Virus record (IMG/VR): IMGVR_UViG_3300021399_000016
Coordinates: 1,808 to 65,807 of that record
Source: a virus
Strand: one strand, 5' to 3'
Length of the DNA stretch: 64,000 nt
The translations under genes were made by a program, and so were the position numbers. The notes beneath the pieces were generated by a model. That model saw only the letters and a list, made by a program, of their open reading frames with translations. It had not been told where the DNA came from and made no database searches. Shown here in pieces: positions 4,183-62,173 of the stretch; position 1 is the first letter of the stretch; each line of letters opens with the position of its first letter.

Positions 4183-4684
4183 GTACTTCTGGCTTAACTA
4201 TGACAAGGAGAAAGCCCTTGCTTATTACAAGAGTCTTCTTGCAAAGAAAGCTGGAACTGAGTACCACGAGATTGCGAAGCAGTGCATTGACCATGGTATT
4301 CAGCTTAAAGGACGAAATACGTTAGCACGTTATGTGAACGATGCTATTGGATTCCGTATGCGTACTGAGCAGTTGCTCGTTTATTCAAAGTATTTCTTTG
4401 GTACTGCTGACGCTATTATATTTCAGGAAAAGGATAAGCTTCTTAGAATCCACGACTTGAAGACCGGCACCATCCCTGCTAAGCTCGACCAGTTACTCAT
4501 CTATGACGCGCTGTTCTGTCTTGAGTATCGGATTGATCCTTCAACGATTAATCATGAGCTTCGGATTTATCAGAATAATGAAATCCTTTCTGACAATCCT
4601 GATGCAGATCAGATCGCACCAATTATGGAAAAGATTCAATCTTTTAACCAGTTCATAGAAGAGTATGAAGAGGGCATAGTGTGA
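4121..4684 (+). CDS. PD-(D/E)xK (Cas4/RecB-like) exonuclease
   Basis: GTADAI...IHDLKTG...QLLIY. Confidence 0.7.
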   Translation: MKWNEHSKLLEGAHAPFGASKYFWLNYDKEKALAYYKSLLAKKAGTEYHEIAKQCIDHGIQLKGRNTLARYVNDAIGFRMRTEQLLVYSKYFFGTADAIIFQEKDKLLRIHDLKTGTIPAKLDQLLIYDALFCLEYRIDPSTINHELRIYQNNEILSDNPDADQIAPIMEKIQSFNQFIEEYEEGIV

Positions 4685-7563
4685 TGGACGAATTATATTT
4701 AGACGACTTAGATTTAAGTGAATTAATAATCGAACATTCTGGAGTCGCTCATGATGAGAATCCGCCAGGACGAGGTTCAGGTAGGTATGCGTATGGTTCT
4801 GGCGACAAACCAAACCAGAGAGAGCCGTTTTCTAATCCATACATTGAGAACATGAGAAAGAACGGATCTTCAGACAAAGAGATCTGTGATCTCATGAAGA
4901 AATCTGGCTTCACTGATGTTGATATTTACAAGAAGCTTCATAAGGCGGGCTGGAAAGACACAGAGATTGCTGAAGGTCTTGACATGAAGACAACTAAACT
5001 TCGTGCTAAGATCAGTATTGCAAAGTATGAACAGCAGGCCAATGATACAGCATCAGCAAGAGCAATGCACGAACAAGGTCTTAGCAACTCAGAGATTGGC
5101 AGAAGACTTGGAGTTTCGGAAGGAACAATCAGGAACTACCTTAATCCTGATATTTCACAGAAGAACGATATTCTTAAAACCACGGCCGATTCGCTTAAAG
5201 ATCTTGTCGCAGAAAAGAAATACATTGATATTGGTCCCGGCGCAGACTTAAGTCTTGGCGTTACTTCAACAAAGCTAGCAACAGCTGTAGCAATGCTTGA
5301 AGAAGAAGGTTACAAGAAGTTCTACGTTTACGAAGAACAGCTTGGCACTGGCAAGAAAACCACTATCACTGTGCTTGCACCTCCAGGCACTACCTATCCT
5401 GAACTAATGAACAATCGCGGTCAGATCAAGACCATCGATAATTATATTCAGGAAGGTGGTGAATTAAAGACTCGTCTCGGTATTGAACCACCAACCAGCG
5501 TTGATTCGTCAAGGATCCAGGTACGTTGGGCTGAAGATGGTGGTACAGACAGAGATGGAACTATAGAGATTAGACGAGGAGTCGAGGACTTGAGCCTTGG
5601 CTCCTCTTCTTATGCTCAGGTTCGTATTGCCGTGGATGGCACACATTATTTGAAAGGCATGGCCATCTATGGTAACGATGATGAGTTTGAACCAGGCAAG
5701 GACATTATATTTAATACCAACAAGAAAGAAGGCACACCTTTAATGCTTGATGATCCTGATGCTAAACAGGTATTCAAGCATTTAAAAGATGACCCCGACA
5801 ATCCCTTTGGCGCTTCTATAAAGATCAAAGATGGAAAGGTTGTTGGTCAGAGACACTACACTGGTGAGGATGGAAAAGATCACCTATCACCAGTCAACAT
5901 CATTAGAGAAGAAGGTGACTGGTCCGAATGGAGTAAGACACTTGCTTCTCAGATGCTGTCCAAACAGACGCCAGCATTAGCAACCAAACAGTTGAGGCTT
6001 GCTTATGAACAGAAGAAGGAAGAGTTTGAGGACTACATGTCTCTTACTAATCCAACTGTGAAGAAGAAGCTTCTTGAGGGCTTTGCTGAAGGTTGTGATG
6101 CAGCGGCAGTAAACTTGAAGGCGGCAGCTCTTCCTGGACAGCAGAACTATGTTATCTTACCTGTTCCTTCCATGAAGACAACTGAGATCTATGCACCTCG
6201 TTATGATAACGGTACTGAGTGTGTACTTATTCGTTACCCTCATGCTGGTCAGTTTGAGATCCCAAGACTAATTGTCAACAATAAGAATGCTGAAGCTAAG
6301 TCATTCATGTACAACGCAAAGGATGCCGTTGGTATTGCACCAAAGGTAGCCGAGCAGTTGTCTGGTGCAGACTTTGATGGTGATACTGTTCTTCTCATTC
6401 CTACCGCTAGACCTGATGGTACACGCATCTCTGATGTAAGAAACAAGAAGGCTATTCAGGAACTTGTGGACTTTAACCCCAAGATGTATGAGTATCCTGA
6501 TGGTGTCGAGCATAAGAAGATGAGCGACCACACTAAACAGGTTCAGATGGGTATGGTTTCGAACTTGATCACGGACATGACCATTGGTGGTGCATCACCA
6601 GAGGAGCTTGTGCGTGCAGTTAAGCACTCAATGGTGGTAATTGATGCACAGAAGCATGGTCTGAACTACAAGCAGTCAGAGAAAGACAATCGTATCGATG
6701 AGCTTAGACAGAAGTACCAGGCTAAAGAGAACGGCAAGGCAGGCGGTGCTAGTACTATCATTAGTAGGGCCTCTGCCGAACAAAGAATAGGGGTACGTAA
6801 AAGAAACTGGAAGCCCGATGCCGAAACAGGTGAGGTTACTTACAGAGAAACTCCTGAATACATTACTACAAGAAAAGTAATGCCTGATGGAACTGTCAAG
6901 GAAGAGACCAGGGAGCGTACTATAAAGACTACCCGGATGGCTTATGAAAAGGACGCCCGTAATCTAATGAGCGGCCCCAATCATGAAGGAATGCCAATCG
7001 AGAGGATCTACGCCAAGTATGCCAACGACATGAAGGCACTTGCAAACCAAGCACGTAAGGAAGCTCTGGATACCCCGCTTCTTCAAACCTCCCCCTCTGC
7101 TAAAAAGGTCTATGCTGCAGAAGTAGAGTCCTTGGAGAACAAGCTTAGGGAAGCCAAAAGTAACGCACCTAGAGAAAGACAGGCTCAGATACTAGCAAAT
7201 GAGTTCATGCGAGCTAAGAGAAAAGACGATCCTAATATGGATGCAGATCATCTCAAGAAAGCTAAGTCGTTGGCCCTTGCTAATGCAAGAGACATTGTTG
7301 GTGCTAAGAAGACAAAGATTGAGATAACAGACAAAGAATGGCAAGCTATTCAGTCTGGTGCTATTAGTGACAACAAATTACGTCAGATTCTTAACAATGC
7401 TGATGACAAAGCAATTAAACAGCTTGCTATGCCAAGAACAAACAACGAACTTAGCAATTCAAAACAAAGTTTAATTAAATCTATGAGTAGTTCAGGTTAT
7501 TCAATTGCCGAAATTGCTGAACGTTTAGACGTTTCTAGTTCGACAGTTAGCAAATACCTGTAA
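4681..7563 (+). CDS. putative single-subunit two-barrel RNA polymerase (YonO/cellular RdRP-like) with N- and C-terminal HTH domains
   Basis: DGTIEI, QVR..LKG, RYP, LSGADFDGD (6370-6384), GMVSNL, VIDAQKHG in the order seen in cellular RdRP/YonO; HTHs GLSNSEIGRRLGVSEGTIRNYL and GYSIAEIAERLDVSSSTVSKYL. Confidence 0.75.
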   Translation: MMDELYLDDLDLSELIIEHSGVAHDENPPGRGSGRYAYGSGDKPNQREPFSNPYIENMRKNGSSDKEICDLMKKSGFTDVDIYKKLHKAGWKDTEIAEGLDMKTTKLRAKISIAKYEQQANDTASARAMHEQGLSNSEIGRRLGVSEGTIRNYLNPDISQKNDILKTTADSLKDLVAEKKYIDIGPGADLSLGVTSTKLATAVAMLEEEGYKKFYVYEEQLGTGKKTTITVLAPPGTTYPELMNNRGQIKTIDNYIQEGGELKTRLGIEPPTSVDSSRIQVRWAEDGGTDRDGTIEIRRGVEDLSLGSSSYAQVRIAVDGTHYLKGMAIYGNDDEFEPGKDIIFNTNKKEGTPLMLDDPDAKQVFKHLKDDPDNPFGASIKIKDGKVVGQRHYTGEDGKDHLSPVNIIREEGDWSEWSKTLASQMLSKQTPALATKQLRLAYEQKKEEFEDYMSLTNPTVKKKLLEGFAEGCDAAAVNLKAAALPGQQNYVILPVPSMKTTEIYAPRYDNGTECVLIRYPHAGQFEIPRLIVNNKNAEAKSFMYNAKDAVGIAPKVAEQLSGADFDGDTVLLIPTARPDGTRISDVRNKKAIQELVDFNPKMYEYPDGVEHKKMSDHTKQVQMGMVSNLITDMTIGGASPEELVRAVKHSMVVIDAQKHGLNYKQSEKDNRIDELRQKYQAKENGKAGGASTIISRASAEQRIGVRKRNWKPDAETGEVTYRETPEYITTRKVMPDGTVKEETRERTIKTTRMAYEKDARNLMSGPNHEGMPIERIYAKYANDMKALANQARKEALDTPLLQTSPSAKKVYAAEVESLENKLREAKSNAPRERQAQILANEFMRAKRKDDPNMDADHLKKAKSLALANARDIVGAKKTKIEITDKEWQAIQSGAISDNKLRQILNNADDKAIKQLAMPRTNNELSNSKQSLIKSMSSSGYSIAEIAERLDVSSSTVSKYL

Positions 7564-41323: not shown

Positions 41324-41345
41324 ACAAGGGCTTTTCTTTTTGCTC

Positions 41346-41387: not shown

Positions 41388-41409
41388 AACTTTGAAAGGA
41401 GAAAACCAC

Positions 41410-42302: not shown

Positions 42303-42402
42303 TCCAGAGAGGCTTCATAGCCTCTTTTCTTTTGCTCTTGAACGAAACGAAGTCGCAATAAAAACATACCCTCTTATAGAATAATACTAAGGAGGAATAG
42401 AT

Positions 42403-42570: not shown

Positions 42571-42692
42571 TATCTGGGCTTAATATTTTTCTCACTCCTT
42601 TCGAACAACAGTTCGTAATTTTTACAATGCATATAATGAAGGACTAAGTAAGATTAATTACAACCGTTGATCGAGCCTGAAAGGAGGACGAC

Positions 42693-42887
42693 ATGACGAA
42701 GCTTTATAGCTGGGTTGCTGCGATGGAAGAAATCGTGAGGATTCTTGGGGGTAACGCTGAAAGTGTTACCTACGAGGGTAAGCGCGAGACTTACCGTCGA
42801 GGCGGAAAGGCGGTGGAGCTGGAGCGTGAGCTTTGGTTCGACGACGAGGAGTATAACTCCTACGTGGTCAAGGAGGTAAGCACTTAA
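42693..42887 (+). CDS. cassette hypothetical protein
   Basis: Promoter 42613, RBS, terminator TAAGCAC-TTAACA-GTGCTTA. Confidence 0.7.
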   Translation: MTKLYSWVAAMEEIVRILGGNAESVTYEGKRETYRRGGKAVELERELWFDDEEYNSYVVKEVST

Positions 42888-42967
42888 CAGTGCTTATTTC
42901 TTTTTCTTTTCGTTCAAAATTTACAACGCCTTTAATGACAATGAAAACAATTTAAAGGAGGTAAAGG

Positions 42968-43300
42968 ATGAGACTTTATGCGGAATGTATTATGAAAGGG
43001 ATCAAGAAACAGTACCGTGACAAAGTTAGGGAAGAGTTTGTTCGCTGTTATTCTGATATTGTAGATGAAAACAATGCGCGGTTCACTGTGTGGAATGACG
43101 AGTATGATCGACTGTACGGAAGTGTCGATGATTCGCATTATAACAGGTGGATCGCGGAAAGGATGCAAAATCAGATCGACAGTAAAGAGAGATCTAAATT
43201 CTTGGTATTTATTGTGAACCCGGATGATGATACCATTCACGCCTATATTAAGGGCTATGCGAAACAAACCGATATTTACTTTGGATTTAATGAGGCTTAA
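42968..43300 (+). CDS. cassette hypothetical protein
   Basis: Variant promoter, RBS, hairpin GAGGC-TTAACAAA-GCCTC. Confidence 0.7.
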   Translation: MRLYAECIMKGIKKQYRDKVREEFVRCYSDIVDENNARFTVWNDEYDRLYGSVDDSHYNRWIAERMQNQIDSKERSKFLVFIVNPDDDTIHAYIKGYAKQTDIYFGFNEA

Positions 43301-43366
43301 CAAAGCCTCGTATTTTTTACAAAGCATATAATGCAAACTAATAATGAGATTTTAAAGGAGGATTTT

Positions 43367-43537
43367 ATGAGTAAATTTAGCATTAAAAAGATTCTTGTCG
43401 GTTTAGGAATCCTGGCAGCCGGTATTGCCGGTTACTTTGGATTAAAGGACGCAAAAAGAAACTACGTTAATGCGAGAAAGGAGGAAGAGACTCCGGACGA
43501 AGATCCGTGTGAGTTTGTGGAAGATGAGGACGCTTAA
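43367..43537 (+). CDS. cassette membrane-anchored protein with acidic tail
   Basis: TM ILVGLGILAAGIAGYFGL; ends EDEDA. Confidence 0.7.
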   Translation: MSKFSIKKILVGLGILAAGIAGYFGLKDAKRNYVNARKEEETPDEDPCEFVEDEDA

Positions 43538-43554
43538 CAGCGTCTTTTTCTTTT
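43529..43554 (+). terminator. repeated terminator GACGC-TTAACA-GCGTC-T tract
   Basis: Same core at about 46071 and 60565; stop codon lies in the loop. Confidence 0.75.
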
Positions 43555-43611
43555 TCGTAATAGATTCAGAGCCTATAATGACACGTTAACTTACTTGAAA
43601 GGAGAACAAGT

Positions 43612-44001
43612 ATGGAAGAAGAGAGAAAAGAAGAAGATGTCCTGGACCTTGCGATTCAGAACGAGTACGAAAACAGCGGTAGTTTTGCTGTTGGAACGGA
43701 GCAGTTGACTAAGTCGAACTCGACTATTGCAGCACTGTACAAGGCAAAAGCTGATATTCTTAAGTCTCAGACCGAGGCTGAAACCGAAGCTAATAAGATC
43801 GAAGCAGAGAAAGAGATCAAGTTGGCCGAAATTGAAGCCGAGGAAAGGAGAGATAAGCGGCAGACCTTGCAGCGTTACGTCGGGGTTGGCGCGATGGTGG
43901 CTGTTGCAGGAGCGGCGCTGTTTGCGGATTCAGACAGCTGGATTGGAAGAGTCAATAAAGGAGTTTTCAACTTGGCAACTAAAGTAATATTTAGAGGCTG
44001 A
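43612..44001 (+). CDS. cassette coiled-coil protein with C-terminal TM
   Basis: Promoter 43555, RBS, terminator. Confidence 0.7.
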   Translation: MEEERKEEDVLDLAIQNEYENSGSFAVGTEQLTKSNSTIAALYKAKADILKSQTEAETEANKIEAEKEIKLAEIEAEERRDKRQTLQRYVGVGAMVAVAGAALFADSDSWIGRVNKGVFNLATKVIFRG

Positions 44002-44097
44002 GTTGACGGTCAAGGCTCTGTAGAAATTACAGGGCCTTTTATTTTTGCCGTTGAACGTAGTGAGAGGGCCTCGTATTTTTTACACACCGTATAATGC

Positions 44098-44213
44098 AAA
44101 ATATAGATACAAGCGGGGCGGGTCCTGTATACGGGGCATGAGGTACCAAGGTAGATGTAGATATTCTACTGAGGGGTGGTAACGACGTGAGTCCACCAGA
44201 TGCTATATTTTTT
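44098..44213 (+). ncRNA. candidate structured small RNA in its own cassette
   Basis: Promoter 44071, no RBS/ORF, 5' AAAATATAG pairs 3' CTATATTTT, three internal hairpins, ends in T run. Confidence 0.55.
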
Positions 44214-44274
44214 TCGAATTTTTTACATTCCCTATTATGGGGTTGAAAATACATTGATATTTGGAGGCGAACTT

Positions 44275-44499
44275 ATGAAAGAGTTTTTACTGAAGCATCC
44301 ATTTTGGGCTTACTGTATGCTCAACTGTATGTGCGTTACTGTAGAAAGTATAGTTAATGGACGCCAGAAGAGAGAAAAGTTTTTAAACCGAATGGTGGAT
44401 ATAGCAGATGAAACAGTAGGAGAACTTAAGGAGAAGTTTGAAAAGAAGAACGACAAAGTAGTACCGATGGGTTTTCACTTCAATAGAGAAGAGGCTTAA
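44275..44499 (+). CDS. cassette protein (KHPF family, paralog of 60908)
   Basis: FLLKHPFW..ESIVNG vs FAVRHPFI..TIVRG. Confidence 0.65.
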   Translation: MKEFLLKHPFWAYCMLNCMCVTVESIVNGRQKREKFLNRMVDIADETVGELKEKFEKKNDKVVPMGFHFNREEA

Positions 44500-44583
44500 C
44501 ATAGCCTCTTAATTTCTCGTAATTTTTACAATACGTATAATGAAATAGTAATACTAAATATTATAAAAACGGAGGATATAGAA

Positions 44584-44883
44584 ATGAGAAAACTTATCGC
44601 TGTTATTATGATGATGGTAGCTATGAGCAATGTGGCTTTTGGAGCCGCAATTGGAGAGTATGAAAAGATGCGAATCTTAGAAGGTACTTATGAGGTATGC
44701 GATAAGTATCCTTCTGTGAAAGGCTTGAATACTGATACTTGGACGGAAGTTGATGCTTTCGGAAACCAGTATAGGATTTATTCCTATATGGAATCCGGAA
44801 AACAGAAACTGGTCTGTCTTAAGCATCATGTATCGAGACAGGAACGGAAGGCGCTTAAAGCAGCAAAGAAAGCTGATAAGTAA
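44584..44883 (+). CDS. cassette secreted protein
   Basis: Signal peptide MRKLIAVIMMMVAMSNVAFG. Confidence 0.7.
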   Translation: MRKLIAVIMMMVAMSNVAFGAAIGEYEKMRILEGTYEVCDKYPSVKGLNTDTWTEVDAFGNQYRIYSYMESGKQKLVCLKHHVSRQERKALKAAKKADK

Positions 44884-44971
44884 CTTCTGAGAAGAAGAGC
44901 GATTTTCATGCTCTTCTTTTTTTTCTCGTAAAATTTTCAACGCCTATAATGAACAGAAAGGAGATATTATT

Positions 44972-45103
44972 ATGGCAAACTTTTTAAGCGGATTTTGGAC
45001 GCCGTCCATGATCATGACTACAGTTATGATGATGGCGTCTATGGCTGCTTTTATAGCAGCTATGGTGTATCTTAATGATGAAGAAGAGAAGGACTCTGAA
45101 TAA
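44972..45103 (+). CDS. cassette small membrane protein (43 aa)
   Basis: Promoter 44926, RBS AAAGGAG, TM plus acidic tail. Confidence 0.6.
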   Translation: MANFLSGFWTPSMIMTTVMMMASMAAFIAAMVYLNDEEEKDSE

Positions 45104-45147
45104 TTTCAGGGTCTTTTCTTTTTCGTAAAATTCTCAATGCATATAAT

Positions 45148-45213
45148 GAAGACTAAGTCGAAATGGTAAGACGCTGGGAAACCAGAGGAATGGGTTCGAT
45201 TCCCATAGTCTTT
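45148..45213 (+). ncRNA. tRNA-like RNA lacking an anticodon loop
   Basis: GAAGACT/AGTCTTT acceptor, GTC-GAAATGGTAA-GAC D arm, CTGG-GAAA-CCAG arm, ATGGG-TTCGATT-CCCAT T arm; promoter 45123; T run. Confidence 0.75.
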
Positions 45214-45393
45214 ATTTTTTTTCTTTTTGAACGAAGTGAGGAATGTAGTGGAGTATGTTTCTGAACTTAGCACTAAAATTGAAAAACTTGAGGAGGCAAA
45301 CGAGAAGTAATAGTAAACGGGGAGTTTAACAGCTCCTCGTATTTTTTTCACTCCCTATAATGCAAACTGAAAACGATTTTAAAGGAGGTAGCA

Positions 45394-45522
45394 ATGAATA
45401 ATCCTTGGGAAGTAATCGGCTTGGTTTTAATTGGAGTAATTTTAACTGGTTGGTTAGGTCCTGTTGGGTTGCTCGCAACCTGCATTGGGATCGCTTACAG
45501 ATTTAAGAAGAAAGGAGAGTGA
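45394..45522 (+). CDS. cassette small membrane protein (42 aa)
   Basis: Promoter 45337, RBS AAAGGAGG. Confidence 0.6.
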   Translation: MNNPWEVIGLVLIGVILTGWLGPVGLLATCIGIAYRFKKKGE

Positions 45523-45525
45523 GAA

Positions 45526-45645
45526 ATGACTGATAAAAAGAGAATAATCAAAATACTTTGGTATTACGCTGTCTTTTACACTGTGGTGTATAAGATGGTT
45601 GATATAGCAATAGAGATTGATGATATTTGGGAGAGGTCTTTTTGA
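45526..45645 (+). CDS. small protein (39 aa)
   Basis: RBS AAAGGAG, followed by terminator. Confidence 0.5.
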   Translation: MTDKKRIIKILWYYAVFYTVVYKMVDIAIEIDDIWERSF

Positions 45646-45728
45646 TCTCTTCTTTTTTTTGAACGCTCATTCGTAATTTTTTCAATCCTTATAATGCAAA
45701 CTTATGATTTCATTTAAGGAGGAAGATT

Positions 45729-46079
45729 ATGGATATTAGAAAACTTTTTGGATTAGAAACCGAGAACGAGAACCTGGTCGGAATGACCGAAGCAATCATG
45801 GACGAATCCGAGAGGATCATGAAGAAAGCATTGGTTGGAACCATGAAGTTCGAAAACATTCAGGACATGAGTTCTGAGGATTTTGAGCTTATACGCGAGA
45901 GCAGTGCTCTTTGGAAAGATTACAAAGATTGCGCCATGAAAGCTGCGGAACGTCTCGACCAGATGGAAGACTTGAAAAAGGAGGTAGAAAAAATGAATAA
46001 GAAGCTTGATTACTATAACGAGCTTCTTAGTGAGATCAAGACAAATCTGCGAGAAATCGCAGAGAAGAAGGACGCTTAA
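45729..46079 (+). CDS. cassette coiled-coil protein
   Basis: Promoter 45671, RBS, shared terminator. Confidence 0.72.
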   Translation: MDIRKLFGLETENENLVGMTEAIMDESERIMKKALVGTMKFENIQDMSSEDFELIRESSALWKDYKDCAMKAAERLDQMEDLKKEVEKMNKKLDYYNELLSEIKTNLREIAEKKDA

Positions 46080-46205
46080 CAGCGTCTTTTTCTTTTAGAT
46101 TCGAAGGCACTGAGAAGCTATATTGCGAATGAAATGAGCTTCGTAAAATTTTCACTCCTTATATTGAAACTGTAATGTGCAGAATAAATTAAGGAGGAAA
46201 TGCTT

Positions 46206-46283
46206 ATGTTTATGTTAGGTATTTGTATGATCTTAATGGGAGTTGCGATATTAATATTTGACAACAAACAAGGTAAAGATTGA
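46206..46283 (+). CDS. cassette micro membrane peptide (25 aa)
   Basis: Promoter 46141, RBS AAGGAGG, terminator GGGAAC..GTTTCCC. Confidence 0.5.
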   Translation: MFMLGICMILMGVAILIFDNKQGKD

Positions 46284-46327
46284 TCCTGATGGGAACTGTA
46301 CATTGCAGTTTCCCTTTATTTTTGCTA

Positions 46328-46369
46328 TCGAACGAAGTGAGAGGGCCGTTGAGCGTAACGAAACAAAAC
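46328..46369. repeat. 42-bp double-hairpin repeat, copy 2
   Basis: TCGAACGAAGTGAGAGGGCCGTTGAGCGTAACGAAACAAAAC. Confidence 0.8.
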
Positions 46370-46388
46370 GAAAGGAGGAAAAACACAT

Positions 46389-46580
46389 TTGTTTATTCAT
46401 GTAAATTTTAAGAATGGAAACAAACCTCTTCTATTTCGTGGTAATGAGTCGATGGTAAATGAAAAAATCGAAGAACTTAAGAAAGACTATTACCTTGAAG
46501 TAGACACGCTCGTATCTGGTGGAATATTTGTTGACGCCGACAGACTTGACATAGAGGAGGATTATACGAATGAAAAATAA
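46389..46580 (+). CDS. hypothetical protein
   Basis: RBS AAAGGAGG, TTG start. Confidence 0.55.
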   Translation: MFIHVNFKNGNKPLLFRGNESMVNEKIEELKKDYYLEVDTLVSGGIFVDADRLDIEEDYTNEK

Positions 46581-47355
46581 GAAACTTGTGATATTTGGAG
46601 CTCTTGCAATCGGCGGACTTGTTGCAACTGCTGTAGCTACTGCGTGGGGGACTGCGAAGGCTACTAGAAAGATCGACGAAGTTAAGCCTGAAACGAAGAA
46701 AGAAACCGTGAAGCTCGTATGGAAGTATTATATTCCGGCTGGTATCGCAATGGGCGTCACGATTATTTCAGATGTGTGTTTCTATCGGATTGGTCTTAAG
46801 GAAATTGCAGCTCTTACTGCTTCTGTATCATACCTTACGGCTAACAGGGATAAGCTTGAAAAGAAGTTTAAAGAGACTGTTGGCGAAGAGAAGTTTAAAG
46901 AAATTAAAGATAATGTTAGAACCGAACTTGCGACCGAATTTGCACCGAAGAAGGGAGAAAAGAACGTCCCTTTCGAATTAATGAAAACGCGGTTTCCAGC
47001 CGAGCCTACAGGTTGTGGAGAGACTCTGTTTCAAGACGGCTGGAGCGGGAGATTCTTCAGATCTGACGTTCCATCTGTTGTTGACGCAATAAAGAAGTTT
47101 AACGATAGATGGGGTAACGGCGAGTACATGTGTTACAACGACCTCTATGATTTGTGGGGAATTACATGCACTCATCAGGGCAATGAGTATGGTTGGCCAA
47201 ATAATGACAACGAACTTGATACTTCCGTAGATATTGAGTTTGAAATTAACAGAATCGGAGAAGAAGAGATGGTCGAAGGGTATAGAAATATTGGTGAAGA
47301 TATTTACGTTATCGAACCTGTAACCTATCCGATGCTGTGCTGGCAGGAATTATAA
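46570..47355 (+). CDS. membrane-associated protein, paralog family A (DUF6353-like)
   Basis: Hydrophobic N-terminal helices; D..SGRFFRS..YNDLY..GW. Confidence 0.7.
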   Translation: MKNKKLVIFGALAIGGLVATAVATAWGTAKATRKIDEVKPETKKETVKLVWKYYIPAGIAMGVTIISDVCFYRIGLKEIAALTASVSYLTANRDKLEKKFKETVGEEKFKEIKDNVRTELATEFAPKKGEKNVPFELMKTRFPAEPTGCGETLFQDGWSGRFFRSDVPSVVDAIKKFNDRWGNGEYMCYNDLYDLWGITCTHQGNEYGWPNNDNELDTSVDIEFEINRIGEEEMVEGYRNIGEDIYVIEPVTYPMLCWQEL

Positions 47356-47367
47356 GGAGGAACAAAA

Positions 47368-48207
47368 ATGAGCATTTTTAAGAAATTTATTAAATCCGCA
47401 ACAACGACGTTCATTAAGAATAAGCCGGCGATTATGACCGGTATTGCACTTGTGTCTCTCGGTACTACTGTTTACGTTGCGCTTAAAGAGGGCGGAAATA
47501 TTAAGGAAGTTCTTGATATTCATAAGGATGAAGTAAATGAAATCGAGAACGATCCTAAGTTAACTGCGGAAGAGAAGACTGAAGAGATTAAGAAAGAGCA
47601 TATGGCAGCTGCTAAGGCTATTGCTCCGTCTATCGGTATGGTTGGTCTTGCAGCTGGCATTACAGCATTTAGTATCTTTGGTATTAACAAAGCTCATACT
47701 GCTAAAGAGATTGCTGCGTCAGCTTTACTTGAAAGTTATAAGGCGCAGGTCTTAAAGTATGAAGAAAAGTTGCCTGACGTTCTTGGTAAAAAGAAAGCGG
47801 AAGAGTTCATGACCGATGTACATATTGCATCGTCAGAAGATTTAAGTAAAAAGGCAGGTACTGATCAGGCGTACACGGCGGTTAAATACACAGATAAGGT
47901 ACCGATGATCGACTCATTTGGTACAAGGTTTATCGCGTCACATAACGAATTGGATAAGGCAATAAATCATCTTGGAAAGGAGCTAGTAGATGACCAACGA
48001 CCAGTTAACTATTCCGACTTCATGTATGAGAACTTCAGTAAAGTCGACATAAACGAGAACGCTGCAGATTTCTTCTTTGATCCGGATGATATTCCGACAA
48101 TTAGAACCGAGGTGTATCAGGATCCGATCTTAGATACGCCCGCTTATCACGTTTATTACAGGTATGGCGGGCCGGTCCCTTCTGGGAAATTAGAGCACAG
48201 GTATTGA
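47368..48207 (+). CDS. membrane-associated protein, paralog family A
   Basis: KNKPAIMTGIALV..TVYVA; DSFGTRF..YSDF. Confidence 0.7.
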   Translation: MSIFKKFIKSATTTFIKNKPAIMTGIALVSLGTTVYVALKEGGNIKEVLDIHKDEVNEIENDPKLTAEEKTEEIKKEHMAAAKAIAPSIGMVGLAAGITAFSIFGINKAHTAKEIAASALLESYKAQVLKYEEKLPDVLGKKKAEEFMTDVHIASSEDLSKKAGTDQAYTAVKYTDKVPMIDSFGTRFIASHNELDKAINHLGKELVDDQRPVNYSDFMYENFSKVDINENAADFFFDPDDIPTIRTEVYQDPILDTPAYHVYYRYGGPVPSGKLEHRY

Positions 48208-48257
48208 TATCCTACTGGGATGCAACGAGCCTCGATGAATTGTGGTAAGTTCTTGTC

Positions 48258-48282
48258 TCGTAATTTTTTCAATGCATATAAT
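48258..48282 (+). promoter_or_regulatory. promoter-like motif copy
   Basis: TCGTA ATTTTTT CA ATG C A TATAAT. Confidence 0.75.
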
Positions 48283-54384: not shown

Positions 54385-54740
54385 ATAAGAATGCATGGGA
54401 ACGTGTCAAAGCTACTGGAACTTTAGCTTGGCGGTATTCTTATGGTGAAAGTGAAAATAAAATTATCTGCGAAGAAATTTACATTATTTTTAGAGATGGC
54501 GAAAACTATGTAAGAGCATGGTCAAAAGAAAAACAAGTACCGTACTTTGTTTATGCCGAGGAAAAAGTACCTCATGGCGGTGCGGTATGGCTTAAAGAAA
54601 AGAATGACAGTCTGGCTGCTGATCTTTTAATCGAATATTTCAAAAATACGATTAAAGCATTACAATCAGAAATACGTTATTTGACTGATAAAATAGACAA
54701 CCTTACCGATTGGAAGGATCAAACGGATGAAGGTCTTTAA
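54381..54740 (+). CDS. hypothetical protein (paralog of 54923)
   Basis: AWRYSY..AWSKE..VWLKEKN..LAADLL. Confidence 0.65.
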   Translation: MNKNAWERVKATGTLAWRYSYGESENKIICEEIYIIFRDGENYVRAWSKEKQVPYFVYAEEKVPHGGAVWLKEKNDSLAADLLIEYFKNTIKALQSEIRYLTDKIDNLTDWKDQTDEGL

Positions 54741-54957: not shown

Positions 54958-55276
54958 AGGTATACCAGCGTGGAGATACTCTTACAATAAAAACACCCTT
55001 ATCCGCGAAGAAGTATATGTTGTTGTAAATAACAATGAATTTAGCGACGTAGTAAATGCCTGGTCCAAAGAAACTAAGAAGAAATACACCGTCTCAGCAA
55101 ACGAACAAGAAGTTTATAACGGTATGGTGTGGCTTAAAGAAAAGAACGTTGTGTTAGCCGCTGATCTGTTGATGGAATACTATCAAAATAAACTTAAAGA
55201 AAAGAAACTGGAAGCAGAGAGACTTCTCGACAAGATAGTCGCCATTAATGACTGGTCAAATGGTGTTAAATCATGA
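54923..55276 (+). CDS. hypothetical protein (paralog of 54381)
   Basis: AWRYSY..AWSKE..VWLKEKN..LAADLL. Confidence 0.65.
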   Translation: MRKERWKDITTRGIPAWRYSYNKNTLIREEVYVVVNNNEFSDVVNAWSKETKKKYTVSANEQEVYNGMVWLKEKNVVLAADLLMEYYQNKLKEKKLEAERLLDKIVAINDWSNGVKS

Positions 55277-56898: not shown

Positions 56899-57055
56899 AG
56901 GTTATGTGGTGCCCTTCGGCTATATGGGATTAGTCGAGGGGCATTATATTTTGTTTGCTACTGAAAACGAATACGTCGAGTATATACGAGACGGAGAGTT
57001 TGCTACTGAAAACGAATACGTCGAATACGTTAGGGCACTGTATGGAGGGAACTGA
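56888..57055 (+). CDS. small protein with internal duplication (55 aa)
   Basis: KGYVVPFGYMGLV..FATENEYVEY twice. Confidence 0.55.
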   Translation: MIFKGYVVPFGYMGLVEGHYILFATENEYVEYIRDGEFATENEYVEYVRALYGGN

Positions 57056-57234
57056 TGGACGAGCTGCTTAACAGTACTAATCCGGGGACATTATATTACT
57101 ACGATAAACCTACAGGAACGTACAAGAAAATTGGAGAAGGGATAACTATCGATTTACCTGTGGACGAAACTTATCCTGCAGATAGATTAGCGGACAGAGA
57201 GGATGTTGATAATGGAAATATTAATAAAACTTAA
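57055..57234 (+). CDS. hypothetical protein (59 aa)
   Basis: TGATG coupling, RBS GGAGG. Confidence 0.45.
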   Translation: MDELLNSTNPGTLYYYDKPTGTYKKIGEGITIDLPVDETYPADRLADREDVDNGNINKT

Positions 57235-57505
57235 AACCGATTGCCCGTATCTAACAGCAGAGGACGTTAAGGAAGATCTTTTAATGTCCGAGGATCAGAT
57301 CGGGTGGAATTATGACTATAAGGTGGTTTCAATAGAAGTTGAAAACGAAACTAATCTCGAAAAACATCTCCGTGGAAAGACATCTGAAGAGCAGTACGAA
57401 TTTTTGTATTGGCTTATGCATGTGTTTGGAAGAGGATATGCCAGCAGTGATCAGGCCATAATTGACTGGATTAGGGGTGATATTAAGGAGGAACCTAATG
57501 GCTAA
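57212..57505 (+). CDS. hypothetical protein
   Basis: ORF in operon. Confidence 0.55.
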   Translation: MEILIKLKTDCPYLTAEDVKEDLLMSEDQIGWNYDYKVVSIEVENETNLEKHLRGKTSEEQYEFLYWLMHVFGRGYASSDQAIIDWIRGDIKEEPNG

Positions 57506-57734
57506 AGGATTTCAAAGCTACTACGATGTTACTTTTTGGATCGGAAGAGGAGAATTCGGGCAGTGCCTTAGATGCGGTCATGAAGGATCATATTCCAATA
57601 TTTGGAGCGGCATTAAGCTTGGAGGAGAAAAGTTCTGCCCTGCTTGCGGAAGAAGGATATTTTTTCCACTAGAAGATAAGAGCATTATTAACTGCATAGA
57701 CGTTACGTTAAAAGAGGAGGATAGTGATGGCTAA
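57498..57734 (+). CDS. zinc-ribbon small protein
   Basis: CLRCG..FCPACG. Confidence 0.6.
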   Translation: MAKGFQSYYDVTFWIGRGEFGQCLRCGHEGSYSNIWSGIKLGGEKFCPACGRRIFFPLEDKSIINCIDVTLKEEDSDG

Positions 57735-57924
57735 CAATTCGCTCGCTGGAGGGTATAAGGATGGCTTCCCTATTGTTTCAAGTATTATATGCGGAAGAAT
57801 AGAATGCAAAGCATGGGCTAACGAAAATTTCGTTTATATTCCAATGTACGATAGCAACATTGGAGCATTTTACTTTGAAGTCGATAAGAAGCTCTTTTCT
57901 AATACATGTGAGGAGGAAATATGA
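57727..57924 (+). CDS. hypothetical protein
   Basis: RBS GAGGAGG. Confidence 0.5.
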   Translation: MANNSLAGGYKDGFPIVSSIICGRIECKAWANENFVYIPMYDSNIGAFYFEVDKKLFSNTCEEEI

Positions 57925-58634
57925 AGTACGATCCTAAAAAGAAATTGTTTTACTACGACGCCCGTTCAGAAGAGTATAAAGAGACTAAATATCCAGCACT
58001 TCATACTATAGTCTATCAGTACGATGATGATTTGAAAGATTTTGAAATAGTTCTTATGAATGAGGAAGAGAAAGTGGACAACGAAGATATGTATAACAAG
58101 TCATGCCACGTATTTTACTTCGATTACAAGACAGAGGAATATAAGGTTGCAGAGGCTAATAAAGATTACAAAAAACTCTACAGATATGATGATGACTTAG
58201 AGCAGTTCGTTGAAATTAAGAAACCGGACCTGTGGTATTATAAAGCTCTTTCCGCAACTAAGAAACATACAGAAAAGGAAGAAGAGAAAGCGGATAACGT
58301 AAACCACCCGAAGCACTATGAGGGATCCTGCTCTATCGAGTGCATTGACGCTATGAGATTTGCTCTCGGAGATGAGGGACTTGCGTTCTTCTGTGCTGGG
58401 AATGCATTCAAGTACCTTTGGCGGTACAAATTTAAGAATGGGCAGGAAGATTTAGATAAAGCTAAATGGTATATGGATAAATTGTCTGAACTTTCATACG
58501 ACAACGATTATAATAGAGACACGGACAAGGTCATAATGAAATTATTCGAAAAAGTTAAACGCTTATATCTAACTGTTACCGGTAAAGAAGAGAATGCAGC
58601 GTTTGAAGATGAGGAGGACAAAGACGATGAATGA
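57921..58634 (+). CDS. DUF3310 (T7 gp1.7-like) domain protein with duplicated N-terminal repeat
   Basis: DNVNHPKHY..IECID..GNAFKYLWR..KNGQEDLDKAKWY; EEYK..YDDDL twice. Confidence 0.75.
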   Translation: MKYDPKKKLFYYDARSEEYKETKYPALHTIVYQYDDDLKDFEIVLMNEEEKVDNEDMYNKSCHVFYFDYKTEEYKVAEANKDYKKLYRYDDDLEQFVEIKKPDLWYYKALSATKKHTEKEEEKADNVNHPKHYEGSCSIECIDAMRFALGDEGLAFFCAGNAFKYLWRYKFKNGQEDLDKAKWYMDKLSELSYDNDYNRDTDKVIMKLFEKVKRLYLTVTGKEENAAFEDEEDKDDE

Positions 58635-58992
58635 CGTTATGGTAAACAGTGTTATTCAAAACCTCTGCGATAAATTTAACGTTGCTGCATCCGAGTTAGT
58701 GCCAAAAATGCAGGCGTATCAGATGGCAATGACGAAACTTGGGATGTGGATTAGTGGAGCGTTTATGGTGCTGTTTCTGATAGCTCTCATTGCCTATATC
58801 GCTCATCTTAATTATAAAAGAGACCACTCTGATTTTGTCTGCAGCGATGAGTATCAATTTGCGGTTTTTATTTATGTAATCGTTAATATTGCACCGGTCA
58901 TTATATGTATAGTTAACGCAGTTGAGTACGTCGGCTGGAAGTATGCTCCTGAGATTAAGTCTATGGAGTACGTCATGAACATGATTAAATAG
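58627..58992 (+). CDS. membrane protein
   Basis: Two TM segments; RBS GAGGAGG. Confidence 0.65.
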   Translation: MNDVMVNSVIQNLCDKFNVAASELVPKMQAYQMAMTKLGMWISGAFMVLFLIALIAYIAHLNYKRDHSDFVCSDEYQFAVFIYVIVNIAPVIICIVNAVEYVGWKYAPEIKSMEYVMNMIK

Positions 58993-59002
58993 TGAGGTTA
59001 GC

Positions 59003-59233
59003 ATGGAGAAAATATTCTGTGATAGATGCGGGAAAATCATAAACCCGAACGAAGAGGCTGAAAAATATATGATAAACGATATGCCGTTCCATAGAATTAC
59101 GAAAATTACATATGATGAACACTATAAGAGGAAAAAAGTACATATCGATTTATGCTATAGTTGTCAGAGTGAATTGACTTATTTCTTATATAGTAAGATG
59201 AAAAACCCATCAAAAGTTATTTTACAGCAATAG
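59003..59233 (+). CDS. zinc-ribbon small protein
   Basis: CDRCG..DLCYSC. Confidence 0.6.
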   Translation: MEKIFCDRCGKIINPNEEAEKYMINDMPFHRITKITYDEHYKRKKVHIDLCYSCQSELTYFLYSKMKNPSKVILQQ

Positions 59234-59252
59234 AAGGAGGTGTTTAGTTGGT

Positions 59253-59534
59253 ATGAAAATTGAAAAAGCCATACAAATTCTTGATCATGCTCTTAAAAAT
59301 GGGTACGAATACCTGCATACTGAAGCTGGTGATATGGCGGTTAGATCTGCGATAGAGGCTCTTAGCAGGCAGGTAGCAAAGAAACCGGATGAGGTATTTA
59401 TTGAAAACGGAGATCAGTCGCAGACCATTGATATTTGTCCGACATGTGGTAGCACTGAGATTTACGAAGAATACGAATTTACGTACTGCCCTGTATGCGG
59501 ACAGAAGATAGATTGGAGTGAAGAGGAATCTTAA
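59253..59534 (+). CDS. zinc-ribbon protein
   Basis: CPTCG..YCPVCGQKIDW. Confidence 0.7.
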   Translation: MKIEKAIQILDHALKNGYEYLHTEAGDMAVRSAIEALSRQVAKKPDEVFIENGDQSQTIDICPTCGSTEIYEEYEFTYCPVCGQKIDWSEEES

Positions 59535-59535
59535 T

Positions 59536-59877
59536 ATGGGTAAACTTACTGAAAGATCCGAACTTTTAATTACTCTTTTTAAAAAAGAAAAAGAAATGAT
59601 GGATCAACTGAAGGATGATTACAATAATTTTTATAAAAAAGGTGAATTCAAAACCATAAAAGACCACTACCAAAGGATGATGATTGGTAAAGTCTGCAAT
59701 CTTCTTGTAAAAATGAAGAAAAATGGTGCCACAGCTGAAGATATTAATCTGATGGAAAGGCTTTTATTTGTTGTAATTAATGCTAAAAAGTACAGTCTAG
59801 ACATTAGAAAGGCCAAGAAAGAGCTTCGTCTTAGTGAACTGGGAAGGAAATATGATGTTGATCACAATTATATTTAA
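59536..59877 (+). CDS. stand-alone paralog of the RNAP post-catalytic helical subdomain
   Basis: 23/68 ungapped identities (hand count) to RNAP residues encoded at 6514-6717. Confidence 0.7.
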   Translation: MGKLTERSELLITLFKKEKEMMDQLKDDYNNFYKKGEFKTIKDHYQRMMIGKVCNLLVKMKKNGATAEDINLMERLLFVVINAKKYSLDIRKAKKELRLSELGRKYDVDHNYI

Positions 59878-60034
59878 AGCATTAATAACCGCTATTGTGC
59901 TGTTTTTAACTTTTAACATAGGAAGGTGCTCTGCAACGCATGATATTTATGATGTAAGAATAGGAAAACGCGATAAAATGCCGGATGATATCATACGATG
60001 GGTAAAATGCTGGGATGAAAAGCGTATTAAATAA
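59852..60034 (+). CDS. small membrane protein
   Basis: N-terminal TM. Confidence 0.5.
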   Translation: MMLITIIFKALITAIVLFLTFNIGRCSATHDIYDVRIGKRDKMPDDIIRWVKCWDEKRIK

Positions 60035-60108
60035 TATTATATCCGCGTAGAAAAAACAAATCCTATAATAGAAACCGAAAATTTGTTTTTGTGAAAGGAG
60101 AAAACACC

Positions 60109-60288
60109 ATGAAAGCAAGAAATGTTTTAGCTATTGGACTTGGCATTGTGGGAGGGATTATCTTTGGTGGCTTAAGTGGGGCCGCTAAGGTAATCCAAGA
60201 CGACGCCTGGGCCGATCTGAAGGACAGTGCGATGAAGTGGAAAGAAGAGCGCGAAAACAAAAAGGAGGAGGAAGACGAGGATGCTTAA
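60109..60288 (+). CDS. cassette membrane-anchored protein with acidic tail
   Basis: LAIGLGIVGGIIFGGL; ends EEEDEDA. Confidence 0.7.
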   Translation: MKARNVLAIGLGIVGGIIFGGLSGAAKVIQDDAWADLKDSAMKWKEERENKKEEEDEDA

Positions 60289-60354
60289 CGGCTCCTCGTA
60301 TTTTTTTCAGCTCTTATAATGCAAACCGTTGGTTTAATTTAAAGGAGGACTGAT

Positions 60355-60573
60355 ATGTGTATTAAAGATTTTACAATTGGTTTTGTGTTGGGAGCATTAG
60401 GAGCTGTTGCCGGTGCTATCGTCGGTTACAAAGTGGCTAAAGAAGAATTTGGTAACCTTGACGACCGACTTGACGGCATCGAGCATTATGCTTCTGATGC
60501 GGCAAACAGTTCAAGTTTAACGTATTATTGGACCCTTGGAAAGAAACCAAAGATGCAGGAAGAGGACGCTTAA
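60355..60573 (+). CDS. cassette membrane-anchored protein
   Basis: IGFVLGALGAVAGAIVG; ends EEDA. Confidence 0.7.
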   Translation: MCIKDFTIGFVLGALGAVAGAIVGYKVAKEEFGNLDDRLDGIEHYASDAANSSSLTYYWTLGKKPKMQEEDA

Positions 60574-60594
60574 CAGCGTCTTTTTCTTTTGTTC

Positions 60595-60636
60595 TCGAAC
60601 TAAGTGAGAGGGCCGTTGAGTGCAACGAAACAAAAC
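60595..60636. repeat. 42-bp double-hairpin repeat, copy 3
   Basis: TCGAACTAAGTGAGAGGGCCGTTGAGTGCAACGAAACAAAAC. Confidence 0.8.
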
Positions 60637-60688
60637 GAAGCTAAAACCATTTATATTTCTAACAAGTGAAAGGAGATTGCATTTAACT

Positions 60689-60856
60689 ATGAGAATTCTG
60701 CCGACTAAAGACGAAGTTAACACGATTTGTATGCTTGTTTCCATTGGTATCTGGGTTAGGATCGGCTGGGATATGGCTGAAGGGACCGGAACTGCTATCA
60801 GGGATTATATTTTAAGACCTGCCAGTAGGAAAATCGTTGATACTTTTAACTCGTAA
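60689..60856 (+). CDS. small membrane protein
   Basis: RBS AAAGGAG; hydrophobic core. Confidence 0.55.
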   Translation: MRILPTKDEVNTICMLVSIGIWVRIGWDMAEGTGTAIRDYILRPASRKIVDTFNS

Positions 60857-60907
60857 TTAATACAAACCGTATAATGCAAACTGTTGATATTTCAAAGGAG
60901 GAGAATT

Positions 60908-61147
60908 ATGGAGAACAAGATGAATGGTTTCACAACGTTCGCAGTAAGGCACCCGTTTATTACGATGTTAATGTTCGGTAAAGCCTGCGAGTCTTTGGTT
61001 ACGATTGTTCGTGGCCACAGGCCTGCGGGTGTGTATAACTTCAACACCAGTGGAACGGAGACTGAGGAAGAAGAGCAGAAGGAGGAACCTGAAGTTGAGA
61101 TCGCTCCGGACGAGATGGTCGAAACAGAAAGCGAGGAGGAGGCTTAA
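60908..61147 (+). CDS. cassette protein (RHPF family) with acidic tail
   Basis: Paralog of 44275; ends ESEEEA. Confidence 0.7.
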   Translation: MENKMNGFTTFAVRHPFITMLMFGKACESLVTIVRGHRPAGVYNFNTSGTETEEEEQKEEPEVEIAPDEMVETESEEEA

Positions 61148-61164
61148 CAAAGCCTCTTCTTTTT

Positions 61165-61229
61165 GCTTTCGAATGAAATGAGAATGCCGTTGAGTGAAAC
61201 GAAACGCTTTCGAACGTAACGAAACAAAC
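61165..61229. repeat. diverged triple-hairpin copy of the GA/GNA repeat
   Basis: GCTTTC-GA-AT-GAA-AT-GA-GAATGC then GTT-GA-GT-GAA-AC-GA-AAC. Confidence 0.7.
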
Positions 61230-61255
61230 TTAAAAGAGCCTAGAAAGGGGAAAAC

Positions 61256-62173
61256 ATGTTTAAAAGCATTGGAAAGAAATTAAGCGTTGCTACTGCCAAA
61301 GTTGGAATGAAGATCGTAAAGCACTCTCCCGAGATTCTCTTTGGTCTCGGTGTAGTTGGATTCGTTGGAACCGTCGTGTATGCTACTGTGAAGGCCGGTC
61401 CTGCTGTAAATAAAGTGCTTGGCGAGCATAATGATAAGCATGACGACCTTGATATTATGCATGATGAAGGTGAAATTGACGATACAGAGCTTAAAAAGGA
61501 AGTAAGAAAGCTTTACGCTAATACTTTCTTCCGTACCGTTAAGGTAACTGCTCCGGTTGTTGCGATGGGTCTAGTGTCTATCGGATGCTTTGGCGGTGCG
61601 CAGTTTATTGTAGTCCGTCGCCTTGGTGCCATGACTACTGAGTATGTGCTCTTACAGAAGACTTTCGACACCTACAGAAGTAACGTGAGAGCTGATGGAG
61701 GTGACACGCTTGATGAAAGATATATGTATGGTCCTGAGAAAAGAGAGATGACCGCTCCTGTTCTTGATGAAGACGGGAATTTGACTGAGGAAACCAGAGA
61801 AGTCACCCAGATCAGGAGTATTCCAGAAAACTCTTATATTTGGGACCACAAATCTCCTACGTTTACCGGCATTGACAGCATGGATGACTATTATGTTGAG
61901 TGTAAGGAGAAGATGCTGCAGCATGAGTTCGAGAGAAAGGGTGTCTTAACGAGAGCAGATTTCCTTGATGCATTTAAGTTAAAAGATGATCTTGATAAAT
62001 CGAGAAAGTCTGGTAACGCGATTATGTTTGGTAGAGTCTGGAGCGATAAGGAAGGCGCTGATAACACGATTAGGATTACCAGATACAGGATCCCTGACTA
62101 TGAAAGTGGGTTCGGCAGATCAAGTAAGGTTGTACTCAGCTGGAATGAAGAGATGATTTATAACGCAATTTAA
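61256..62173 (+). CDS. membrane-associated protein, paralog family A (DUF6353-like)
   Basis: KHSPEILFGLGVVGFVGTVVYA..FDTYRSNV. Confidence 0.72.
   Translation: MFKSIGKKLSVATAKVGMKIVKHSPEILFGLGVVGFVGTVVYATVKAGPAVNKVLGEHNDKHDDLDIMHDEGEIDDTELKKEVRKLYANTFFRTVKVTAPVVAMGLVSIGCFGGAQFIVVRRLGAMTTEYVLLQKTFDTYRSNVRADGGDTLDERYMYGPEKREMTAPVLDEDGNLTEETREVTQIRSIPENSYIWDHKSPTFTGIDSMDDYYVECKEKMLQHEFERKGVLTRADFLDAFKLKDDLDKSRKSGNAIMFGRVWSDKEGADNTIRITRYRIPDYESGFGRSSKVVLSWNEEMIYNAI

Follow-up and report, generated by a model that had tools for sequence, protein, structure and literature searches.

P0002, a 113-residue protein encoded by a gut phage, is homologous to a single subdomain of the two-barrel RNA polymerase encoded by the same genome (P0001). 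On the basis of its sequence and predicted fold, we read the copied part as the bridge helix and trigger-loop subdomain (BH-TL) of the enzyme, preceded by a short post-barrel segment. Stand-alone ("solo") BH-TL proteins of this kind form a family that is rare and so far undescribed, and their genes are optional for the phages. Sequence comparison identifies P0002 as an intact, selected gene and not a decaying fragment. As for its function, we tentatively favor a putative non-catalytic mimic that modulates the phage polymerase.

The window, the whole stretch of 64,000 nucleotides that was analyzed, corresponds to bases 1808–65807 of a 65,807-bp virus record bearing direct terminal repeats. Every called gene in it lies on the plus strand, in the order DNA polymerase, helicase, exonuclease, the 960-residue polymerase-like protein, HNH, terminase, portal, head, tail (including a 2346-residue tape measure), and lysis, followed by 24 kb of chiefly small ORFs. 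P0002 is located in this last region, where its neighbors are small early-region ORFs, among them genes for zinc ribbons and membrane proteins (Table 1). Two small zinc-ribbon ORFs lie immediately 5' of it (59003–59233 and 59253–59534), the second of which has a weak TFIIB-zinc-ribbon match in Pfam, under the cut-off (24.3 versus 29 bits). A blastn search with 57000–62000 against phages gave no DNA match. A 97-nt direct repeat with 70% identity was also observed at 54561–54657 and 55103–55199, 542 nt apart and within adjacent small ORFs, which suggests paralogous early genes.

Table 1. Features of the window that bear on P0002 (window numbering)
Feature	Position	Strand	Details
P0001, 960-residue QDE-1/YonO-like two-barrel RNA polymerase	4681..7563	+	HTH domains at both ends
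DFDGD catalytic loop of P0001	6370..6384	+	Residues 564–568
Resident BH-TL module of P0001	6517..6720	+	Residues 613–680; M623 G624 M625 N628 D632; I654 D655 K658 H659
Upstream neighbor, 93-residue zinc-ribbon protein (PHROG 10714)	59253..59534	+	Stop 1 nt before the P0002 ATG
GAGGA ribosome-binding site	59523..59527	+	8 nt 5' of the P0002 ATG; from sequence
Gene-sized stretch missing from related phages	59525..59869	+	Indel
P0002, 113-residue stand-alone BH-TL protein	59536..59877	+	ATG start
P0002 codons 43–62, predicted long helix, counterpart of the bridge helix in the polymerase	59662..59721	+	I50 G51 K52 .. N55; AF2 helix 43–62; alignment with P0001 616–636; match to the QDE-1 motif
P0002 codons 67–106, predicted helices equivalent to the trigger-loop subdomain	59734..59853	+	I81 N82 .. 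K85 Y86; L88 D89; K105 Y106; AF2 helices 67–81, 83–86, 90–96, 99–106; alignment with P0001 640–679; match to the QDE-1 motif
Downstream neighbor, 60-residue ORF	59852..60034	+	Hydrophobic N-terminal stretch; start overlaps the last 26 nt of P0002

Residues 39–106 of P0002 align without gaps to residues 612–679 of P0001 with 23 identities in 68 positions, exactly the count given in the first-pass annotation. The BLOSUM62 score of this alignment is 114, whereas the best ungapped scores found anywhere in the polymerase with 300 shuffles of the segment had a mean of 2.8, a standard deviation of 6.1, and a maximum of 23. BLASTP aligned P0002 with P0001 at 27 identities in 80 positions (E 2e-12), and P0002 also matched the polymerase family PHROG 4291 (E 5e-7) at profile positions 552–632 of 909. 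Reciprocally, a profile built from 25 stand-alone proteins matched the same stretch in five other phage polymerases with E values from 1e-21 to 6e-30. A Pfam scan of P0002 returned no family, RdRP included. The copied segment of the polymerase spans residues ~580–685, which take in the post-barrel loop and helix, the bridge helix, and the trigger-loop subdomain. The earlier view that the ORF duplicates helices following the active site and lacks DFDGD was thus borne out and can be refined to a bridge helix and trigger-loop subdomain without the catalytic barrels; no DxDGD is present in P0002. No second two-barrel core was found in the window, the sole D-x-D-G-D in frames of at least 150 residues being that of the polymerase itself at 6370.

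P0001 matches PHROG 4291, a family labeled "RNA-dependent RNA polymerase", with an E value of 0, which places it with orf75 of Lactococcus phage 1706, Faecalibacterium phage FP_oengus, and actinophage relatives. Pfam detected a weak match to RdRP (PF05183; E 1.3e-3, residues 555–684) and sigma-70-region-4/LuxR-type HTH matches at residues 124–155 and 924–960. An AF2 model of P0001 based on a 34-sequence alignment had a pLDDT of 83.9, and its best Foldseek matches in the PDB were QDE-1 (E 2.6e-9), the Thermus phage polymerases P32 gp64 and P74 gp62, and plant RDR2. VIA-align gave Z scores of 15.9 to RDR2, 13.2 to QDE-1 (model 272–796 equivalent to chain 683–1186), and about 10.7 to Rpb1 of Pol II (for example, model 481–652 equivalent to Rpb1 356–1102). 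The BH-TL residues listed for P0001 in Table 1 are invariant among 34 polymerases; the predicted helices are 616–636, 640–659, 663–669, and 672–679, with the bridge-helix and trigger-loop motifs in the first two. In one of the GenBank records for phage 1706, the P0001 homolog is annotated as "structural protein", so that virion carriage of the polymerase is possible by analogy. In the viral contig L038 (60,591 bp, G018), a related polymerase gene at 1–2602 is interrupted 22 residues past the trigger-loop motif and resumes in another frame (ORF 1712–2602), representing a frameshift or a natural split; the break falls at the same boundary as the C-terminal end of the solo proteins.

The assignment of the copied part rests on comparison with QDE-1. 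According to PMC9508822, the catalytic aspartates of QDE-1 form the DPBB2 triad, the bridge helix touches the template via L1082, G1083, M1084, N1087, and R1091, and the trigger-loop subdomain (1102–1136) touches the incoming NTP via V1115, D1116, and K1119. The polymerase-invariant xGMxxN corresponds to L1082/G1083/M1084/N1087, and IDxxKH to V1115/D1116/K1119, with a Gly-to-Asp spacing of 31 in P0001 and 33 in QDE-1. QDE-1 (PDB 7Y7S, 2J7N) and other two-barrel polymerases carry an xG(M/K)xxN helix followed ~31 residues on by (I/V)-(D/N)-x-x-K, as does P0002. In the latter, G51 and N55 take the places of G1083 and N1087 (Gly, then Asn four residues on), and I81-N82-A-K-K85, with position 82 again 31 residues past the Gly, stands for the (V/I)-D-x-x-K of the enzyme with the Lys retained. 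P0002 therefore differs from QDE-1 in having Asn for the trigger-loop Asp and Lys for the bridge-helix Met. The AF2 model of P0002 is all-helical, with a pLDDT of 81.9 that rises above 90 across residues 41–80, and its helices (43–62, 67–81/83–86, 90–96, and 99–106) resemble in order and length those of P0001; the helix-hairpin-helix layout is common to P0002 and the BH-TL of QDE-1. Our reading of the subdomain as BH-TL is based on these motifs, their spacing, and a structural alignment at the level of ranges and not of residue-level superposition.

Unlike the BH-TL of QDE-1, P0002 is a separate polypeptide, and identification of P0002 as a two-barrel polymerase in its own right was ruled out: the all-helical model contains no double-psi beta-barrels, and DxDGD is missing. 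Lacking both, P0002 cannot polymerize. Searches with the P0002 model were uninformative, as for a small helical protein: Foldseek found nothing in the PDB at E ≤ 0.001, and the best match of a VIA wide search (Z 6.5) was to designed or generic helical bundles. Among PDB sequences, profiles A1 and A4 matched nothing but repeat proteins of designed origin and one HTH repeat, and a search of the ESM Atlas gave no usable match.

P0002 is not alone. A phmmer search against 1.84 billion representatives gave 38 matches at E ≤ 1e-3, about 30 of which were small. The small set contains an intact ortholog of equal length (P0003, 113 residues) with 84% identity, about 27 other proteins of 103–131 residues, three tandem duplicates of 181–216 residues, and three proteins of 173–174 residues with a C-terminal extension. 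In two of the three, the extension is a LuxR/sigma-4-type HTH above the Pfam GerE cut-off; the HTH of P0013 had no significant BLAST match to that of the polymerase. The large matches were eight polymerase-type or otherwise large proteins, six of 859–1049 residues, one of 495, and one of 5153. The last (P0008) carries its BH-TL module at residues 3995–4064, far from the N-terminus, and calls to mind Thermus phage P23-45, whose virion polymerase is fused to the tape measure. The solos share the consensus H..(h)(h)GK..NL...M...GAT.EE..RA.KY..V.IDA.KY.LDYK...D.gI.EL..KY and all terminate 2–17 residues past the final K-Y motif; Pfam assigned no family to the 25 solos scanned. In a word-indexed profile search, 32 small proteins came up, in clusters of 1–8 member sequences each, and the solos are accordingly rare next to the polymerase family with its at least 8000 clusters. 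No close relatives of P0002 were found in viral contigs, nor of P0003 in metagenome contigs. A separate group of proteins, 278–290 residues long, has a degenerate BH-TL-like N-terminus fused to DUF6273 (L127 2158–3000; L232 2920–3786; also G057 and G486). These fusions are flanked by PHROG-2152-like membrane proteins, a membrane family with three members in the window (46570, 47368, and 61256).

Conservation within the family bears on whether P0002 is functional at all. It is improbable, in our estimate, that P0002 is a neutral remnant, that is, a fragment of a polymerase gene that arose by illegitimate recombination and stays open by chance, though its absence from close relatives, its rarity (1–3 member sequences per cluster), and the lack of any transcript contig over it would fit such an origin. 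The contigs from the metatranscriptome run X5 map solely to 60084–60251, 60313–60554, 60891–60922, and 60899–61096; the missing cover over P0002 carries no weight in itself. On the other hand, P0002 and the intact P0003 differ at 18 of 113 positions, and the changes are unevenly distributed: 10 fall in residues 1–39 and 7 in residues 40–107, with a single change among the 49 residues 49–97. Some 25 diverged solos have kept a length of 103–131 residues and an end close behind K-Y, the fold of P0002 is predicted with confidence, and the gene is tightly packed between its neighbors and preceded by a Shine-Dalgarno sequence of its own. The family-wide conservation disfavors a remnant. The first-pass annotation had named an insignificant alignment, or a decaying fragment absent from relatives, as findings that would speak against its proposal; the alignment is significant and decay is contradicted by the intact ortholog and the conserved family, and only the absence from some relatives was found.

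There are signs that the solos are constrained differently from the polymerases. In a tree of 68 modules, which comprises only 97 columns and leaves many forks unresolved, the 34 polymerase modules lie on one side of a branch (SH-aLRT 80) and have short branches. End branches are mostly 0.8–4 for solos and mostly under 0.5 for polymerase modules, indicating that the solos evolve faster. P0002 and P0003 do not stand beside the polymerase of their own genome on this tree, so P0002 is not a recent duplicate. Columns were compared between 34 solo-type and 34 polymerase modules. The bridge-helix Gly (G51) is kept in 31 of the 34 solo-type modules; position 82 is Asp in 25 and Asn in 8 of them (Asp in all 34 polymerases); K85 is Lys in 31 and Arg in 3; K105 is found in all 34 and Y106 in 32. 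L56, G64, A65, I81, Y/H86, L88, D89, I99, and L102 are likewise kept in solos and polymerases. By contrast, other residues invariant in the polymerases have changed in the solo-type modules: M623 is replaced by Val (19) or Thr (7), N628 is retained in only 15 of 34, D632 has become Arg (10) or Lys (6) in 16 of 34 and remains Asp in 4, and T631 and Q680 are not retained. A His at position 46, where polymerases have Lys, is specific to the solos (27/34). Net charge was considered as a family trait and rejected, since the median is +2 in solos and polymerase modules alike; only P0002 and P0003 are strongly basic.

P0002 is an optional, strain-variable accessory gene, and the flanks are intact in relatives that do not have it. 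When public contigs were compared over 57000–61500, a 20,938-nt contig from another sample of the same study (run X3), which tracks the window on both flanks in pieces differing at roughly 2–11% of letters, was found to run from 59524 straight to 59870 across 17 unrelated letters. In a goat-gut study (run X8), a contig of 390 nt, with a depth of just 3.3, links 59524 and 59891 through 38 letters. The relatives thus have the zinc-ribbon gene next to the downstream small ORF and lack precisely the gene of P0002. The two contigs show that gene-less genomes exist; contigs of this sort show the presence, not the absence, of variants. The four cultured phage records searched whole (1706, Lewando, LibertyBell, and contig89) and a 10.5-kb fragment each gave one match, inside the polymerase, and no solo.

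A wider sample agreed with this picture: no extra BH-TL copy was present in 96 of 100 polymerase-bearing phages and prophages. On the viral side, the best 80 viral-contig loci were all in polymerase frames, and 50 records (contigs of ~25 kb or more), 15 of which are at least 90% complete, were searched whole; 49 had the polymerase match only. On the cellular side, 80 genome-contig loci, mostly from Lachnospiraceae, Ruminococcus, and other Clostridia, were again all polymerase frames, and only polymerase-sized matches were seen in 52 of the 55 genomes searched (47 of 50 in the prophage-bearing sample). The four exceptions (G048, G057, G483, and G486) encode the 278–290-residue protein with a degenerate BH-TL-like part and DUF6273, Pfam having been run on two of the four. 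In a random sample of 400 genomes of the class to which G053 belongs, two had any match, both in long frames. True solos of 112–125 residues with DNA context are those of this phage (G000), a complete 100,880-bp phage (G052/L123), and three metagenome contigs. One of the contigs, L228, has the same local order as the window, with a similar zinc-ribbon ORF preceding the solo gene and small membrane ORFs, together with a DUF3310-like gene like that at 57921–58634. In the group of the 100-kb phage, a gene within ~1 kb of the solo (L123 4093–5565; L229 568–2031; L230 1–744) encodes a protein that we take, by eye from its sequence, to be TROVE/Ro60-like and vWA-like.

Both solo-bearing genomes that were searched whole (G000 and G052) encode a complete polymerase, which bears on the possibility that P0002 is a trans-acting catalytic part supplying bridge helix and trigger loop to a core without them. 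Separate polypeptides do carry the bridge helix and/or trigger loop in split polymerases such as that of cyanobacterial rpoC1/rpoC2. There, the piece is the only copy and essential, whereas P0002 is an optional extra beside a complete enzyme. The interrupted polymerase gene of L038 would suit a split enzyme, but the resident polymerases of G000 and G052 have complete BH-TL motifs, the window offers no second frame with DxDGD, the template-facing invariant residues are lost in the solos, and 49 of 50 and 47 of 50 polymerase-bearing records manage without an extra copy. We regard a split enzyme as very improbable.

The retention of the packing core and of the trigger-loop D/N-x-x-K, combined with the loss of the bridge-helix invariants, led us to infer a non-catalytic mimic. 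P0002 would derive from a two-barrel RNA polymerase of the type that the phage itself encodes, of which residues ~580–685 alone were copied, and may now occupy the groove or partner surface used by the resident BH-TL, for example on newly made or refolding polymerase. It would thereby modulate, most simply damp, transcription by the phage polymerase, and HTH-fused solo relatives could sit on the same DNA as the polymerase. In support, solos lie beside a complete polymerase wherever this could be tested, and some are fused to an HTH of the polymerase's type. Since P0002 is missing in close relatives and in most polymerase-bearing phages, it cannot be a core temporal switch, and an accessory device for tuning or competition is the more fitting description. 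The first-pass annotation had proposed a switch or inhibitor of the phage polymerase or a decoy for a host sensor; of these, an optional modulator or a decoy may still apply. Complex prediction with polymerase residues 160–960 and P0002, each with an alignment and with controls not run, gave scores of 0.04 and 0.02 against a mark of 0.32, which counts neither for nor against binding. Several points speak against the mimic. The resident BH-TL of QDE-1 is described as rigid and tightly packed (PMC9508822), which leaves a free copy without an evident route to take its place in the folded enzyme. In addition, the absence of the gene from related phages and most records means that such regulation is dispensable, the co-occurrence with the polymerase may merely reflect the birthplace of the gene, and the conserved D/K and G residues could be structural.

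A bolder version of the mimic, which we consider unlikely, is that the solo BH-TL proteins make up a novel class of viral "active-site microproteins", poison or decoy copies that dock into the two-barrel core. Docking would take place while the polymerase folds, or refolds after ejection from the virion, and would yield a dead enzyme because the equivalents of the template-facing M623, N628, and D632 are changed. The phage might in this way shut down its own early transcription or exclude superinfecting relatives that use an injected polymerase of the same family. The arms race so implied would explain the fast evolution and patchy distribution.

The same data are open to a reading almost as likely as the mimic, although itself less than an even chance: the BH-TL three-helix bundle was copied once and is now an exapted scaffold, a small helical binding module for a non-polymerase target. 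A host protein, the membrane neighbors, or nucleic acid may be that target, as for many early-region accessory phage genes. Its standing derives from the fast evolution of the solos, the lost invariant residues, and the DUF6273 fusions, which suggest that BH-TL is usable as a general-purpose helical domain. The divergence of the solos far exceeds that of the polymerase modules (mostly 0.8–4 versus mostly under 0.5), the polymerase-invariant positions are gone and His46 has been gained, the module is joined to unrelated domains (DUF6273 and the LuxR-type HTH), and the gene is optional and has small early-region ORFs, including those for zinc ribbons and membrane proteins, around it. A scaffold accounts less readily for the conservation, despite deep divergence, of D/N-x-x-K in the trigger loop, Gly in the bridge helix, and K-Y at the end, or for the higher score of each of two solos against its own resident polymerase than against the other's (50.4 versus 40.0 bits and 33.9 versus 26.9 bits; n = 2).

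A promoter-like element, TCGTA(W5)TWCA(N5)TATAAT, occurs in 19 same-strand copies in the window against 0.04 expected by chance, at 3771, at 16 sites within 40411–48282, at 60296, and at 60851; most copies lie 30–40 nt upstream of a Shine-Dalgarno sequence and ATG. The gap between TCGTAA and TATAAT is only 13 nt, and the element is therefore not a canonical sigma-70 −35/−10 pair; it may be a candidate promoter of the phage's own polymerase. With no copy between 48.3 and 60.3 kb, P0002 is at the far end of a 12-kb site-free block. A further unit of ~68 nt, present in five copies (41320, 44025, 46302, 60569, and 61143), consists of a terminator-like hairpin stem and T-run followed by ~40 conserved nucleotides (TCGAAC..GTGAGAGGGCCGTTGAGTG.AACGAAAC); it may represent another class of promoter, or else an element of RNA.

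The position of P0002, which is not directly behind a promoter-like site and hence gives no indication of very early expression, counts against another function, that of a decoy. A free module might titrate a host defense sensor or an inhibitor, whether protein or small molecule, that recognizes the BH-TL of the incoming polymerase; we think this quite unlikely. Strain-variable presence, fast evolution, and a retained exposed face are typical of anti-defense accessory genes, and P0002 has a strain-variable, gene-sized distribution, belongs to fast-evolving solos, and retains the most exposed catalytic-face residues, D/N and K. The annotation of the phage 1706 polymerase as a structural protein implies, moreover, that the enzyme could be an early, exposed target. 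Nevertheless, we know of no defense system or inhibitor that targets this two-barrel polymerase family, and none was found here. In solved relatives (PMC9508822), BH-TL also lies deep in the active-site cleft.

The polymerase family of P0001 is already known, and its members in phage 1706 (orf75), FP_oengus, and the actinophage supercluster have been described as putative YonO/RdRP-like polymerases with HTH at both ends (bioRxiv 10.1101/842583; PMC2919709). These two sources cover the full-length enzyme only, in contrast to the stand-alone P0002. YonO of SPbeta, a single-chain two-barrel phage polymerase that transcribes DNA, provides a functional precedent for P0001; it is reported to have no detectable trigger-loop homology (PMC5467207). 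Unlike YonO, P0001 has a clear trigger-loop motif, the very part duplicated in P0002. Full-text literature searches turned up no description of stand-alone phage BH-TL copies, and neither they nor Pfam gave a precedent for a separately encoded, extra, non-catalytic copy of BH-TL.

A parallel in kind is provided by MicroProteins and Id-type dominant-negative regulators, small single-domain paralogs that lack the active part and act via a dimerization domain. P0002 is likewise a small paralog of one domain of a larger protein of the same genome, and its proposed mode of action is alike. BH-TL is not known, to our knowledge, to mediate dimerization; P0002 differs from the MicroProteins in being a copy of BH-TL and not of a dimerization domain, and its binding to P0001 is proposed by analogy only.

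In every two-barrel RNA polymerase, the bridge helix and trigger loop are the mobile elements at the center of the enzyme. If P0002 acts on the polymerase, it would represent a new and very compact means to regulate or sabotage transcription, and would offer a handle on the folding and working of a poorly characterized family of gut-phage polymerases. If it does not, the solos would be a clean case of a catalytic element recycled as a general helical module, which occurs solo, in tandem, fused to HTH, and fused to DUF6273.
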